In this document: positions 19,520-24,159 of the stretch, piece after piece
How the letters are laid out: every line of letters starts with the position of its first letter
How positions within the stretch are numbered: position 1 is the first letter of the stretch
Assembly: GCA_022791325.1 (NCBI GenBank)
Contig: JAAVYV010000019.1
Coordinates: 640-64,639, forward strand
Reading direction: 5' to 3'
Source of the DNA: Clostridia bacterium
Lineage (GTDB): Bacteria; Bacillota; Clostridia; TANB77; CAG-508
Length of the DNA: 64,000 nt
Translations under genes and position numbers: made by a program
Notes under the pieces: model-generated
What the model was told of the DNA's origin: nothing
The model's input: the letters and a program-made list of their open reading frames with translations, nothing else
The model's database searches: none

Positions 19520-19960
19520 ATGGAAAAATTAGAAGTAACATTAGAAAAAGAAAACAATGACTATTTTAGAAAATGGATTATAGAAGAATGGAAACATCAC
19601 AATACAGTAGATCCAATATATCAATTAAGAATTATAAAACCAGAAGAACTAACTTTTGAAGAAAATGAAGAATATTATAAAATTATGTTTAATAATGAAA
19701 TGGTTGGTTTTATAGGAACAAAGAATTATCCGAAAGAACTATATTTATATAGATTTTATATAGATGAAAAATATAGAAATAAGGGAATAGGAACAATAGC
19801 ATTAAATCAAATAATAGGTATGGCAAAAAAACAAGATAAAGATATGTCACTAGAAGTAATGGGGGAGAATATAGCAAGAGACTTATATGAAAGATTAGGC
19901 TTTAAAACTCATTATAGGAGAATGGTATTAAAAATAAATGATGATATATTCCTAAAATAA
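19520..19960 (+). CDS. GNAT family N-acetyltransferase
   Basis: 146-aa acetyl-CoA-binding-like motif (RNKGIGTIALNQ). Confidence 0.65.
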   Translation: MEKLEVTLEKENNDYFRKWIIEEWKHHNTVDPIYQLRIIKPEELTFEENEEYYKIMFNNEMVGFIGTKNYPKELYLYRFYIDEKYRNKGIGTIALNQIIGMAKKQDKDMSLEVMGENIARDLYERLGFKTHYRRMVLKINDDIFLK

Positions 19961-19992
19961 TTCTTAAAAACTAAATAGATTGGAGTAAAATA

Positions 19993-20640
19993 ATGTCTAT
20001 ATTAAAACCACAAAAAATACTATTAGAAAATTTAAATAAAATAGAAAATTTAATAGAAGAAATACAAAAAGATGAAGAGATTGAAAACATTATTATTGAA
20101 GATTATAAAAAAGAAAACATAGAACTTGCAGATATAACAATAAAAAGAGCAATAATAAACAATACAGAAATTATGGGTAGTAATTTAGAAAAAGATACTT
20201 TTATAGATATACAGTTTAACAATTGCAACTTTTCAAATACTTCTTTTGATAATTGTAGTTTTATAAGATGTGAATTTAATAACTGCAAATTAACAGGCTG
20301 CAACTTTATTGAAAGTGGCTTATATGACATAGGTTTTATAGATACAAATATGAATTATACTAATTTATCAATGTCAAGTATGAAAAATATTCTATTTAAA
20401 AATACAATGCTAAGAAATAGCTGTTTTAATGAAAATGAAACAAAGAATATAATATTAAAAGAAATAGACTTGACAAGAGCACAATTTTTCAAAACAAGTC
20501 TAAAGGCAGTAGATTTATCAGATAGTATAATTGAAGGAATAGCAATATCAATAGAAGATATAAAAGGAGCAATAATAAATGAGTTTCAATCATTAGATTT
20601 AATCTATTTGTTAGGAATAAAAGTAAAAGATATAGATTAG
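19993..20640 (+). CDS. Pentapeptide-repeat protein (Qnr/MfpA-like size)
   Basis: 215 aa. Tandem A(D/N)LxX pentapeptide repeats (NCNFSNTSFDNCSFIRCEFNNCKLTGCNF). Confidence 0.75.
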   Translation: MSILKPQKILLENLNKIENLIEEIQKDEEIENIIIEDYKKENIELADITIKRAIINNTEIMGSNLEKDTFIDIQFNNCNFSNTSFDNCSFIRCEFNNCKLTGCNFIESGLYDIGFIDTNMNYTNLSMSSMKNILFKNTMLRNSCFNENETKNIILKEIDLTRAQFFKTSLKAVDLSDSIIEGIAISIEDIKGAIINEFQSLDLIYLLGIKVKDID

Positions 20641-20658
20641 AGAAAAGGAGGCAAAATA

Positions 20659-21186
20659 ATGAAAGAATTAATAGATGTGCTAGATGAAAATGGAAATAGA
20701 ATAGGAGAAATTTTAACAAAAGAACAAATACATAAGAAAGGATTATGCCATAAAATAGTTGTAATTACAATTATAGATGCAAAAGGATATATATTGATGC
20801 AACAACGTTCAAAAAGCAAAGCAGTGAATCCAGAAAAATGGGATGTGACAGTAGCAGGGCATGTGTCAAGTGGAGAAACTTCTAAACAAGCAGCAGTAAG
20901 AGAAATTTTAGAAGAAGTAGGAATAAGTATAAATGAAAAAGAACTTGAACATATACTAACATATAGAGATATAGAAAAAATAAAAGAAAATTATATTGAT
21001 AATCAAATTTACGATTGTTATATTGTAAAAAAAGAAAAAATAGAATTAAATGATATAAAAATACAAGAAAGTGAAGTTGAACAAGTAAAATTATGTAATT
21101 TAAAAGAATTTAATGAAATTGTATTAAATGAAAATATAATGAAAAGAGACGAACTCTATAAGAAAATTATAAAATATTTAAAATAA
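20659..21186 (+). CDS. NUDIX hydrolase
   Basis: Nudix box GHVSSGETSKQAAVREILEEVGI. Confidence 0.75.
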   Translation: MKELIDVLDENGNRIGEILTKEQIHKKGLCHKIVVITIIDAKGYILMQQRSKSKAVNPEKWDVTVAGHVSSGETSKQAAVREILEEVGISINEKELEHILTYRDIEKIKENYIDNQIYDCYIVKKEKIELNDIKIQESEVEQVKLCNLKEFNEIVLNENIMKRDELYKKIIKYLK

Positions 21187-21205
21187 TTATAGAGGAGGAA
21201 TAAAT

Positions 21206-21934: not shown

Positions 21935-22030
21935 AAGAGGAAACCCCTAGCCTAATGCTTGAAAATAGTATTAAAGTAGGGTATATTTAAAGAGGAAACC
22001 CCTAGCCTATAAGTAGGGTAAAAAAGTAAG
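21935..22030 (+). ncRNA. Putative type III antitoxin RNA (ToxI-like repeats) of cassette 1
   Basis: Two direct repeats starting AGAGGAAACCCCTAGCCTA (54 nt and about 36 nt). Located between the promoter and a terminator hairpin, directly upstream of the toxN-like gene. Confidence 0.5.
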
Positions 22031-22063
22031 AGTGAGGGCTTTAAAAAGAGGCTCTCACTTTGT
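22030..22063 (+). terminator. Hairpin terminator between antitoxin repeats and toxN-1
   Basis: AGTGAGGGC-loop-GCTCTCACT followed by TTTG. This is the canonical type III TA arrangement. Confidence 0.55.
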
Positions 22064-22084
22064 AATATTTTAGAGGAGTAATTA

Positions 22085-22576
22085 ATGAACAATTTAAGAT
22101 TATATAAAATTGATATTGAGTATATCAAATATTTATATTTTTTTGACAATAGAATACAATATAATCCAAATCAGCCAGATGAATATACTAAGAAAAGACC
22201 ATATTTAGGTATTGTATTACAAGTAGATAACTTTGACTATTTTGTACCATTAGAGCATCCAAGATTAAGTCATCAAAAAATGAAAAATAATATATATATT
22301 TTAAAAATACATAACGGAAAATATGGAATATTAGGATTTAATAATATGATACCAGTAAGTAAAGAAGCACTTATTGATTTTGATATAAATAGAGAAAATC
22401 CATCATATAAACAAATATTAATAAGTCAATATCGTTTTTGTAATAAACATATTTATGAAATACAAGAAAGAGCAAAGACAACATATGAAAAAAGTCAAGC
22501 AAATGGATTCTTTAAGAAAGTATGTTGTAATTTTAAATTATTAGAAGAACAGTGTAAAAAATATAAAAATAGTTAA
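22085..22576 (+). CDS. toxN: Type III toxin-antitoxin system toxin, ToxN/AbiQ family endoribonuclease
   Basis: 163 aa. MNNLRLYKIDIEYIKYL...KKRPYLGIVLQVDNFDYFVPLEHPR matches the ToxN/AbiQ N-terminal signature. Confidence 0.8.
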   Translation: MNNLRLYKIDIEYIKYLYFFDNRIQYNPNQPDEYTKKRPYLGIVLQVDNFDYFVPLEHPRLSHQKMKNNIYILKIHNGKYGILGFNNMIPVSKEALIDFDINRENPSYKQILISQYRFCNKHIYEIQERAKTTYEKSQANGFFKKVCCNFKLLEEQCKKYKNS

Positions 22577-22668
22577 CTACTTTTTAATTTGTTATAAAAA
22601 ATTAAAATCTGATATAATTCATTCAATAGAAATGTTACAAAAATATAATAATCTAAGGGAGAGAAAAT

Positions 22669-24159
22669 ATGTCATTAATAAATGTAAATAATTTAACATT
22701 TGGCTATGAAGGAAGTATAAATAATGTATTTGAAAATGTATCATTTAACATAGATACAGACTGGAAACTAGGGCTAATAGGTAGAAATGGCAAGGGAAAA
22801 ACCACTTTTTTAAAACTATTATTAGGTGAGTATGAATACAAAGGAATAATATCAAAAAATGTAGAATTTGATTACTTCCCTTTTGAAGTAAAAAATAAAG
22901 AAAAAATGGCAATAGAAGTGGTTAATGAAATTGCACCGAATGTAGAAGACTGGGAAATCATAAAAGAATTAAACTTACTAAACACAAATGCAGAAATTCT
23001 TTATAGAAATTTTTGCTTGTTAAGTGGTGGAGAACAAATAAAAATACTTTTAATAAGTTTATTTCTAAAAGGAGAAAACTTTTTATTTATAGATGAACCC
23101 ACAAATCATTTAGATAGTGAAACAAAAGAAAATTTAGTAGAATACTTAAAAAACAAAAGAAGTTTCATATTAGTGTCACATGATAGGGATTTTCTAGATA
23201 AAGTAGTAGACCATATTATTTCTATAAACAATACAAATATAGATATACAAAAGGGAAACTTCACTTCATGGAAGGAAAATAAAGAAGCTCAAGATAACTT
23301 TGAGCAAACTCAAAATGAAAGATTAACAAAAGATATAAATAGGTTAGAAAAAGCCTCAAAAAATACAGCAAAATGGTCAGACAAAATAGAAAAAACTAAA
23401 TATAATAATAAATCTAGCGAATTTGTAGATAGAGGATATATAGGACATCAATCCGCAAAAATGATGAAAAAAGCTAAAGTAATGGAAAAAAGAATTGAAA
23501 AAACAATACAGCAAAAATCTACATTATTACACAATATAGAAAAAGCAGATGCTTTAAAAATAACACCATTAGAAAGTAGAAAAAGCCCATTAATAGTAGC
23601 TAATAATTTGCAAATAGAATATAACAAAAAAACTATATTTGATAAAGTATCATTTGAAATAGAAAACGGAGATAGAATTGCAATAACAGGCAAAAACGGT
23701 GCAGGAAAATCAAGCATACTAAAACTTATACTAGGAGAAAAAATAAACTATACAGGAAATTTTAAAAAAGTAAATGACATAAAAATATCATATGTATCAC
23801 AAAGCACAGAACACCTAAAAGGAACACTAAAAGAATATGCAAGGCAGAGCAAAATAGAAGAAAGCATATTTAAAGCAATGCTATCAAAAATGGGTTTTAC
23901 AAATTCAGAATTTGAAAGCGACATAAGCAAAATGAGTGAAGGACAAAAGAAAAAAGTACTAATAGCAAAAAGCATATCAGAACCCGCAAACATTTATATA
24001 TGGGACGAGCCACTAAACTACATAGATATTCTAACAAGAATACAAATAGAAGAAGCAATACTAAAATATAAACCAACACTTATATTTGTAGAACATGACG
24101 AAGCATTTGTGAAAAAAGTAGCAACGAAAGTGATACGTTTGAAAAAATATGAAAAATAG
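22669..24159 (+). CDS. ABC-F family ATPase, ARE-type (Lsa/Vga/CplR-like ribosomal-protection protein)
   Basis: 496 aa. Two ABC domains (Walker A GRNGKGKTT and GKNGAGKSS, signatures LSGGEQ and MSEGQKK) with a long interdomain linker of about 80 aa and no TM domain. Size matches Lsa-type ARE proteins. Confidence 0.75.
   Translation: MSLINVNNLTFGYEGSINNVFENVSFNIDTDWKLGLIGRNGKGKTTFLKLLLGEYEYKGIISKNVEFDYFPFEVKNKEKMAIEVVNEIAPNVEDWEIIKELNLLNTNAEILYRNFCLLSGGEQIKILLISLFLKGENFLFIDEPTNHLDSETKENLVEYLKNKRSFILVSHDRDFLDKVVDHIISINNTNIDIQKGNFTSWKENKEAQDNFEQTQNERLTKDINRLEKASKNTAKWSDKIEKTKYNNKSSEFVDRGYIGHQSAKMMKKAKVMEKRIEKTIQQKSTLLHNIEKADALKITPLESRKSPLIVANNLQIEYNKKTIFDKVSFEIENGDRIAITGKNGAGKSSILKLILGEKINYTGNFKKVNDIKISYVSQSTEHLKGTLKEYARQSKIEESIFKAMLSKMGFTNSEFESDISKMSEGQKKKVLIAKSISEPANIYIWDEPLNYIDILTRIQIEEAILKYKPTLIFVEHDEAFVKKVATKVIRLKKYEK

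Follow-up and report, generated by a model that had tools for sequence, protein, structure and literature searches.

A predicted Lsa-type ABC-F gene and an EfsQnr-like pentapeptide-repeat gene in a variable chromosomal region of uncultured gut Clostridiaceae

What kind of locus carries a pentapeptide-repeat protein (PRP) of Qnr size and a two-domain ABC-F ATPase beside type III toxin–antitoxin (TA) modules? These genes lie at positions 19520–24159 of a 64,000-nt stretch of Clostridia bacterium DNA (contig JAAVYV010000019.1; the whole stretch is the window, and coordinates refer to it), together with genes for a GNAT acetyltransferase, a NUDIX hydrolase and a HAD-superfamily nucleotidase. An initial annotation had proposed that they form one resistance and defence locus, intrinsic or acquired, with a Qnr-like PRP and a CplR-like ABC-F protein. 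We followed up this proposal by comparing the proteins with curated families and structures and the locus with loci from related genomes and contigs, which carry L-numbers (L001, L002 and so on). We are fairly confident that this is a variable chromosomal region, from an uncultured gut Clostridiaceae species, in which several independent functions, and not one machine, lie side by side. It is likely to be an intrinsic resistance locus, built of known kinds of parts and requiring no new mechanism. The open reading frames (ORFs) and domain calls of the annotation were right (Pfam scores well above cutoffs), and its reading of the ABC-F protein and the PRP was largely correct, describing something real but ordinary.

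The family assignment of the ABC-F protein is based on two rankings, one of curated hidden Markov models (HMMs) and one of solved structures. Lsa was the best-scoring NCBIfam family by a wide margin: the Lsa_all model (NF000167) matched at 699.5 bits over model positions 1–492 of 492, followed by Msr (253 bits), Vga (250), Sal (229), CplR (211) and OptrA (209). The generic model of ribosomal-protection ABC-F proteins (NF000355) was matched over positions 2–499 of 499 at 486.9 bits, above its cutoff of 380, in agreement with the earlier call of an antibiotic resistance (ARE) type protein. The comparison with CplR had picked the wrong subfamily, that model (NF043038) giving a partial match only (211.4 bits against a cutoff of 780). 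The housekeeping models EttA (197 bits), Uup (190 bits), YbiT and YheS scored 166–199 bits against cutoffs of 599–936, which bears out the distinction from EttA-like proteins. Among solved structures, Lsa(A) (7NHK) was the best match, at 402 bits over residues 1–492, ahead of VmlR/ExpZ (194 bits), MsrE (177), VgaA-LC (155) and EttA (154). By these rankings, the protein is assigned to the ARE-type ABC-F proteins of the Lsa/ARE3 lineage, and neither to CplR (ARE1) nor to the housekeeping families. It is 41% identical to Lsa(A), 57% to Lsa(E) and also 57% to a Clostridium tagluense plasmid protein that bears the RefSeq name 'Lsa family'. According to the Lsa(F) paper, accepted Lsa variants are 42–59% identical to one another; because 57% lies within this range, the protein would count by field convention as a new Lsa-type protein.

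The sequence features of the protein are those of a complete ABC-F ATPase. Pfam finds two ABC_tran domains (133 bits) and no membrane domain, the ATPase domains being the only ones. The first nucleotide-binding domain (NBD) holds GRNGKGKT at 38, LSGGE at 118, FLFIDEP at 138 and SHD at 170, and the second GKNGAGKS at 341, MSEGQ at 422, IYIWDEP at 442 and EHD at 475, so that the Walker A, signature, Walker B with its catalytic Glu and H-loop motifs are intact in both. Residues 1–492 align with Lsa(A) 1–497 with short indels only, and the interdomain linker (ARD) matches the whole Lsa(A) ARD, its alignment showing 3-nt-equivalent and one-residue insertions only. A Lys stands at the position aligned with the essential Lys244 of Lsa(A), where mutation lowered resistance. 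A C-terminal extension is absent, in keeping with ARE3, and the protein shares with Lsa(A) and Lsa(E) the two NBDs, a length of about 495 residues and the lack of both a membrane domain and such an extension. Like lsa(A), the gene is chromosomal and species-wide; unlike lsa(A) and lsa(E), it comes from an uncultured gut Clostridiaceae. With CplR of Clostridioides difficile and Clostridium perfringens it has in common that it is a genome-encoded clostridial ARE-type ABC-F gene with an expected spectrum of pleuromutilins and lincosamides as well as streptogramin A (PLSA), but the long ARD and the attenuator with an MR[I/M] upstream ORF (uORF) of CplR are not seen here. An identical ABC-F protein (100%) is encoded on L001 (CANPTO010000006.1), a contig of an uncultured Clostridiaceae metagenome-assembled genome (MAG), and relatives of 73–99% identity occur in 79 further species-level genomes (80 with L001), nearly all of them MAGs of Clostridia from the gut of mouse, chicken, ruminants and humans.

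Homology with Lsa(A) suggests how the protein would act. Its ATP-bound form would bind the ribosomal E site, with the ARD extending beyond a distorted P-site tRNA toward the peptidyl-transferase centre. Pleuromutilins, lincosamides and streptogramin A would be displaced allosterically, and the protein would then leave the ribosome upon ATP hydrolysis. Both this mechanism and the drug spectrum are inferred from Lsa(A).

The best sequence match of the PRP among solved structures is EfsQnr (2W7Z; E value 1e-19, residues 25–210), followed by PENT and AlbG. The AlphaFold2 model, built with 46 homologues (pLDDT 93), contains eight uninterrupted 20-residue coils at residues 29–188 and a C-terminal helix at 197–207. 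Foldseek superposed it on PENT (6FLS) with a template-modelling (TM) score of 0.93 and on EfsQnr with scores of 0.91–0.94 (root-mean-square deviation 1.6–1.7 Å), whereas QnrB1 and AhQnr fitted poorly (0.27–0.44). EfsQnr, a protein of 211 residues with eight coils and a C-terminal dimerization helix, gives fluoroquinolone resistance in Enterococcus faecalis; PENT of Clostridium botulinum has an EfsQnr-like shape without the Qnr loops, and its function is unconfirmed. The PRP resembles both in length (211–217 residues), in its unbroken coils and C-terminal helix and in having no loops of the QnrB1 type, the surface loops A and B being absent from the model. With plasmid-borne Qnr proteins (QnrA/B/S) and MfpA it shares the right-handed quadrilateral β-helix and a similar size, but it differs from them in the missing loops and in poor global superposition (TM score 0.27–0.63). 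On the family models, the PRP stayed below every NCBIfam cutoff for Qnr and MfpA (19–39 bits against 240–500), with 39.4 bits against 240 on the Qnr family model (NF033086) and 19–32 bits on those of QnrA/B/S/VC/D/E. The model thus has the fold shown by EfsQnr and PENT, two Qnr-like proteins of Gram-positive bacteria; the initial label of a Qnr-like protein stands for the fold, but the PRP is not established as a Qnr family member. Most likely, the PRP would bind DNA gyrase as a DNA mimic and shield it from gyrase poisons.

How the two genes belong together is best seen in relatives. In the four closest species (L002, L003, L004 and L006), whose ABC-F proteins are 99%, 93%, 87% and 87% identical to that of the window, tblastn synteny and alignment of the junctions placed the PRP stop codon 13–20 nt from the ABC-F start codon, with only a ribosome-binding site between. 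In the window and in L001, by contrast, 2.03 kb comprising the NUDIX and HAD genes, the ToxIN module and a promoter region separates them, so that what had been annotated as a five-gene locus is an adjoining PRP–ABC-F pair in these relatives and extra DNA in between. On a neighbour-joining tree of the ABC-F proteins, the tight junction is ancestral to the group and the segment is gained in the window lineage. NUDIX–HAD–ToxIN therefore looks, from these junctions, like a gain of about 2.0 kb in that lineage, and the PRP gene would ancestrally have been co-transcribed with the ABC-F gene. L007 (3941–6000) carries a different filler of about 2 kb at the same place, with one ORF of 177 aa, further small ORFs and a fragment of 113 aa that resembles cytidylate kinase; this marks the junction as a site of recurrent gain.

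Might selection, rather than ancestry, have kept the pair adjacent, as a two-gene cassette for target protection whose products are made together and may be functionally coupled? A single operon in this clade of gut Clostridia would then serve to protect gyrase as well as the ribosome, the window copy would have been split by the ToxIN-carrying insertion, and this would have left its ABC-F gene with a promoter of its own; in a bolder version, the PRP would act with the ABC-F protein on the translation apparatus. Adjacency does occur in both orders, since in L013, L014, L015, L021 and L035 the ABC-F gene precedes the PRP gene by 12–35 nt and in L023 by 251 nt, and these ABC-F-first pairs have different flanking genes and are spread over several deep branches in the ABC-F tree. 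However, about 50 of the roughly 62 chromosomal ABC-F loci have no PRP gene nearby, and tight coupling is evidently dispensable where some 2 kb splits the pair, as in the window and L007. None of six neighbourhoods of PRP homologues (36–67% identity), all in unrelated contexts, contained an Lsa-like gene, and the C. tagluense plasmid Lsa gene has no PRP neighbour; because of these cases, we downgraded the generality of the link. A limited literature search returned no report of a PRP gene adjoining an ABC-F gene. We consider a selected cassette unlikely and read the pairing, from its distribution, as an old linkage that has often been lost.

Several independent functions on a chromosome remain the reading that we prefer, and the next question is whether they arrived there as a horizontally acquired resistance and defence island. 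The composition and mosaicism of the region speak in part for acquisition. The GC content of the GNAT, PRP, NUDIX, HAD, ToxN and CptN genes is 21–24%, and that of the 2.0-kb NUDIX–HAD–ToxIN segment 22.6%, compared with 28.7% for the window. In L002, the allele of orf119, the gene downstream of the ABC-F gene, is 44% identical whereas the flanking genes are 98–99% identical. Strains of the same species also differ: CptIN, the second TA module, is absent from L094 (7547–7679) and truncated to 145 aa in another strain, and in L089 and L092 (1–1293) the place directly upstream of the HTH gene, taken by an ABC exporter in the window, is occupied by a large serine recombinase of 587 aa. One member of the ABC-F clade is, moreover, linked to an erm-like gene and 100% identical in 18 MAGs of different taxa. 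Against this, neither an integrase nor a transposase was seen near the stretch in the window, which also contains no tRNA gene. The order ABC exporter, HTH, (GNAT), PRP, ABC-F is syntenic in L002–L004, L006 and L007, the exporter, HTH, PRP and ABC-F genes being syntenic across six species-level genomes, and the window is chromosomal, as it carries genes for fatty-acid synthesis, biotin carboxylase, a Lon-like protease and a helicase. The exact ToxN sequence was met only in this context, and add-on behaviour is limited to the NUDIX–HAD–ToxIN segment of about 2 kb and CptIN. An acquired island is improbable on this evidence. Because the pair is syntenic, chromosomal and without mobility genes in the window, it looks intrinsic: the ABC-F and PRP genes are most likely intrinsic to this uncultured gut Clostridiaceae species, and the TA modules are variable add-ons. 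Of the two options in 'intrinsic or acquired', the first thus suits the pair and variability belongs to the modules.

The clade does have a member that appears to move. The ABC-F protein that is identical across the 18 MAGs (L058–L075, for example L058:4943–7485) is 75% identical to that of the window, and its hosts are classed as Tenericutes, Bacilli, Oscillospiraceae, Lachnospiraceae and Clostridia. A gene for a 303-aa erm-like rRNA methyltransferase lies 146 nt upstream; 13 of the 18 have it intact, in four it is truncated or different, and the short contig L061 lacks it. The methyltransferase scored 270 bits on the Erm(42) model (cutoff 600) and 210.9 bits on the broad Erm model (cutoff 212). 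The nearest chromosomal relative of this ABC-F protein is that of L076 (86%). We rejected an identification of these 75%-identical genes on short contigs as lsa(E), given that identity between the window protein and Lsa(E) is no more than 57% and that the upstream gene is an erm-like methyltransferase and not aadE/spw. Its sequence context suggests that L058–L075 represent a mobile erm-lsa unit, as yet without a name, that falls inside the chromosomal clade.

If functional, the window gene would be a new lsa-type determinant, less than 80% identical to any named Lsa, and would for that reason merit a letter of its own. It would also make an abundant lineage of uncultured gut Clostridiaceae intrinsically tolerant of three drug classes with heavy use in livestock, namely lincosamides, pleuromutilins and streptogramin A. 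The clade is relevant to resistance surveillance, as the commensals may be the reservoir that gave rise to the mobile erm-lsa unit, and the recurrent pairing of PRP and ABC-F genes offers a small lead on the co-selection of target-protection proteins. The points of note are the patchy PRP/ABC-F cassette, the missing attenuator and the erm-linked mobile member of the clade; the rest is ordinary accessory-genome content.

The ABC-F gene appears to have a short leader. The intergenic region upstream of it is 92 nt long, and a predicted TG-extended promoter leaves a 5′ untranslated region of about 45 nt. ARE-type ABC-F genes of PLSA spectrum have very short uORFs followed by a terminator or anti-Shine–Dalgarno structure (MR[I/M] for CplR, MIN for VmlR and, as predicted, MAGN for LsaA). 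A search for a leader peptide or attenuator at 22577–22668 had been proposed, but unlike these inducible genes the window gene has no such arrangement: the 92 nt hold no terminator-like hairpin, the sole ATG (22632) has no Shine–Dalgarno (SD) sequence, the fold at 22577–22690 is not unusual (z = −1.69), and Rfam returned nothing for the region at gathering or E-value thresholds. Upstream of the PRP gene of L003, no attenuator was found either. Transcription of the gene appears to start at its own promoter, with a short leader; as no strong terminator follows toxN, read-through from the toxI promoter through toxN is also possible.

In at least 12 relatives (L007, L013, L014, L016, L029, L037, L038, L042, L043, L048, L053 and L055), a palindrome of 9–17 bp centred on TTGA lies 30–43 nt 5′ of the ABC-F start codon, with T(A/T)TG-N-TATTAT after it, and its arms vary between species in a compensatory manner. 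The region may be a −35/TRTG/−10 promoter lying in a hairpin or operator; an insulating terminator is the other possibility. In the window, a weak, all-A/T version of 9 bp lies at 22582–22607. The architecture of its 92-nt region is alike, but we do not claim homology with the palindrome-promoter of the relatives, the sequence similarity being too weak.

Frameshifts add to the variation within the species. Other strains have A5 in place of the A6 tract of the ABC-F gene, which splits the gene into 81 and 417 aa; contigs with this change come from three samples (L089/L095, which are one contig, L093 and L097). A5 is a natural loss-of-function allele or possibly a phase-variable one. That the ABC-F protein might serve as a housekeeping factor of translation or as the ATPase of a defence system is highly improbable: the missing attenuator leader, matches to PADLOC mad3 (152.8 bits) and the AbiEii-like AAA_21, and the two flanking abortive-infection-type TA modules would fit, but the EttA, Uup, YbiT and YheS-type models fall far short of the Lsa score, the mad3 match is broken over four stretches, as for generic ABC ATPase similarity, the linker aligns with the whole Lsa(A) ARD, and the frameshift alleles argue against an essential role.

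Both TA toxins proposed in the initial annotation are real, but their modules do not bracket the stretch. ToxIN (21868–22576) lies inside it, between the HAD and ABC-F genes, and CptIN (24751–25484) lies downstream of the ABC-F gene and orf119, so that the two enclose only the latter pair. ToxN matches the Pfam ToxN_toxin model over its full length (1–159 of 159). Each toxin gene is preceded by short direct repeats and a promoter with the perfect sequence TTGACA-18-TATAAT, and a terminator scan was positive before toxN; promoter, tandem RNA repeats, terminator and toxin follow one another as in the canonical type III layout of ToxIN/AbiQ. The toxI-like units share an exact 20-nt core, AAGAGGAAACCCCTAGCCTA, at a distance of 55 nt, and a CCCTA...TAGGG hairpin comes after each core, with a longer loop in the first unit. 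CptN scored well above the cutoff of its family (155 versus 90 bits), and the repeats upstream of it (48 nt × 2.2, compared with about 45 nt expected) include two 48-nt copies that are 77% identical in a repeat search. No Rfam family matched the toxI-like or the cptI-like RNA. The modules are expected to act as RNA-antitoxin/endoribonuclease systems for abortive infection or stabilization. Type III modules seem to be frequent in these small gut Clostridia genomes: in an unrelated genome, a further ToxN-family toxin is encoded two genes away from a homologue of the PRP (L084:2013–4549), and L031 has a 36%-identical ToxN 2.7 kb downstream of its ABC-F gene.

Several points weigh against an intrinsic resistance locus of this make-up. 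The functions of the ABC-F protein and the PRP are predictions from sequence and models. The ABC-F protein falls under the curated Lsa cutoff (699.5 versus 750 bits), as do all members of its clade that were tested (700–712 bits, the relatives of the window protein giving 706–712), and the clade may be a sister lineage with a differing drug spectrum. Compared with Lsa(A), the ARD loop is four residues shorter and a Val takes the place of Phe257, although F257A was without effect in Lsa(A). Because some strains carry the frameshift, the ABC-F gene is dispensable. The PRP is only 27% identical to EfsQnr, its closest structural match is PENT, a protein of unconfirmed function, and gyrase binding is a prediction for the PRP and equally unconfirmed for PENT. 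The toxI-like array, unlike that of ToxIN/AbiQ, is short, with two units, one of them irregular. Last, the choice of an insertion here over a deletion in the relatives follows from parsimony and a tree of one protein.

The remaining genes of the stretch had been counted in the resistance set, but the GNAT, NUDIX and HAD proteins matched no resistance or defence family above cutoff in NCBIfam, PADLOC or PHROG and would be small enzymes of the house-cleaning type. The best NCBIfam match of the GNAT protein was RimI (49 bits, cutoff 86), and the AAC(6'), AAC(3) and ArsN resistance models gave 17–24 bits against cutoffs of 125–410; its gene is present in L002 and L006 and absent from L003 and L004. 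The NUDIX protein came closest to isopentenyl diphosphate (IPP) isomerase (65 bits) and YfcD (57 bits), both below cutoff, and the HAD protein matched phrog_420 at 67 bits. A defence role for NUDIX and HAD was rejected as unsupported, the candidates being a weak PADLOC match (PDC-S07, NUDIX, 38.8 bits) and generic PHROG matches only. In several relatives, small genes of the GNAT and NUDIX types occur close to the ABC-F gene, a weak pattern for gene types as common as these. The XRE-type HTH protein is encoded upstream of the PRP–ABC-F pair in L003, L004 and L006 as well (71–86% identity); as a conserved upstream neighbour of (GNAT)–PRP–ABC-F, it is a possible candidate regulator, inferred from position only. 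The orf119 protein has three homologues among 5.8 billion proteins; its AlphaFold2 model (pLDDT 93.9) consists of four helices and a β-hairpin, a fold with no match in the Protein Data Bank (best E value 0.27). Coordinates are collected in Table 1.

Table 1 Features of the PRP–ABC-F region, in window coordinates.
Feature	Position	Strand	Basis or remark
XRE-type HTH protein, 272 aa	18591–19409	+	Pfam HTH_3 56 bits; hydrophobic segment after HTH
GNAT acetyltransferase, 146 aa	19520–19960	+	Pfam Acetyltransf_1 56.8 bits
PRP, EfsQnr/PENT-type, 215 aa	19993–20640	+	Pfam Pentapeptide_4 111.8 bits
Segment of about 2.0 kb: NUDIX, HAD, ToxIN, ABC-F promoter region	20641–22655		Not in four closest species
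NUDIX hydrolase, 175 aa	20659–21186	+	Pfam NUDIX 65.5 bits
HAD-superfamily NT5C-like 5'(3')-deoxyribonucleotidase, 185 aa	21206–21763	+	Pfam NT5C 36.5 bits (cutoff 24.8)
toxI-like RNA promoter, predicted	21868–21897	+	TTGACA-18-TATAAT, 12/12 sigma-70 consensus
toxI-like antitoxin RNA region, two units	21935–22027	+	Repeat search and direct reading
Intrinsic terminator, toxI/toxN	22029–22061	+	14-bp stem, 5 GC pairs, then T-rich tail
ToxN/AbiQ-family type III toxin, 163 aa	22085–22576	+	Pfam ToxN_toxin 149 bits; PADLOC AbiQ 134 bits
ABC-F promoter, predicted	22589–22618	+	TTGTTA-18-TATAAT with preceding TG (promoter scan)
Lsa-type (ARE3-like) ABC-F, 496 aa	22669–24159	+	NCBIfam Lsa_all 699.5 bits
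A6 tract within ABC-F gene	22890–22895	+	A5 in other strains of same species
orf119, orphan 119-aa protein	24275–24634	+	No Pfam, NCBIfam or PHROG match
cptI RNA promoter, predicted	24751–24780	+	TTGACA-18-TATAAT, 12/12 sigma-70 consensus
cptI-like antitoxin repeats, 48 nt × 2.2 copies	24820–24924	+	TRF score 138, 82% matches
CptN type III toxin, 162 aa	24996–25484	+	NCBIfam CptIN (NF047359) 155 bits, cutoff 90

One further observation concerns the second ABC-exporter gene upstream of this region (16507–16600). A strong SD sequence and an ATG at 16524 open a frame (MPGPMGGPRK...) that stops after about 23 codons, while the body of the exporter, including its first transmembrane segment, runs in the +1 frame and has no canonical start before 16849. 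That frame is the one of the upstream exporter gene, from which a TAA at 16519–21 is the sole separator. The arrangement may be explained by a programmed +1 frameshift (at CCU-CGG-A or a run of AAA-A), by read-through of the stop codon or by a non-canonical start, and the split-frame layout is kept in three other species (L003:1791–1931, L007:471–610 and L004:1020–1163).

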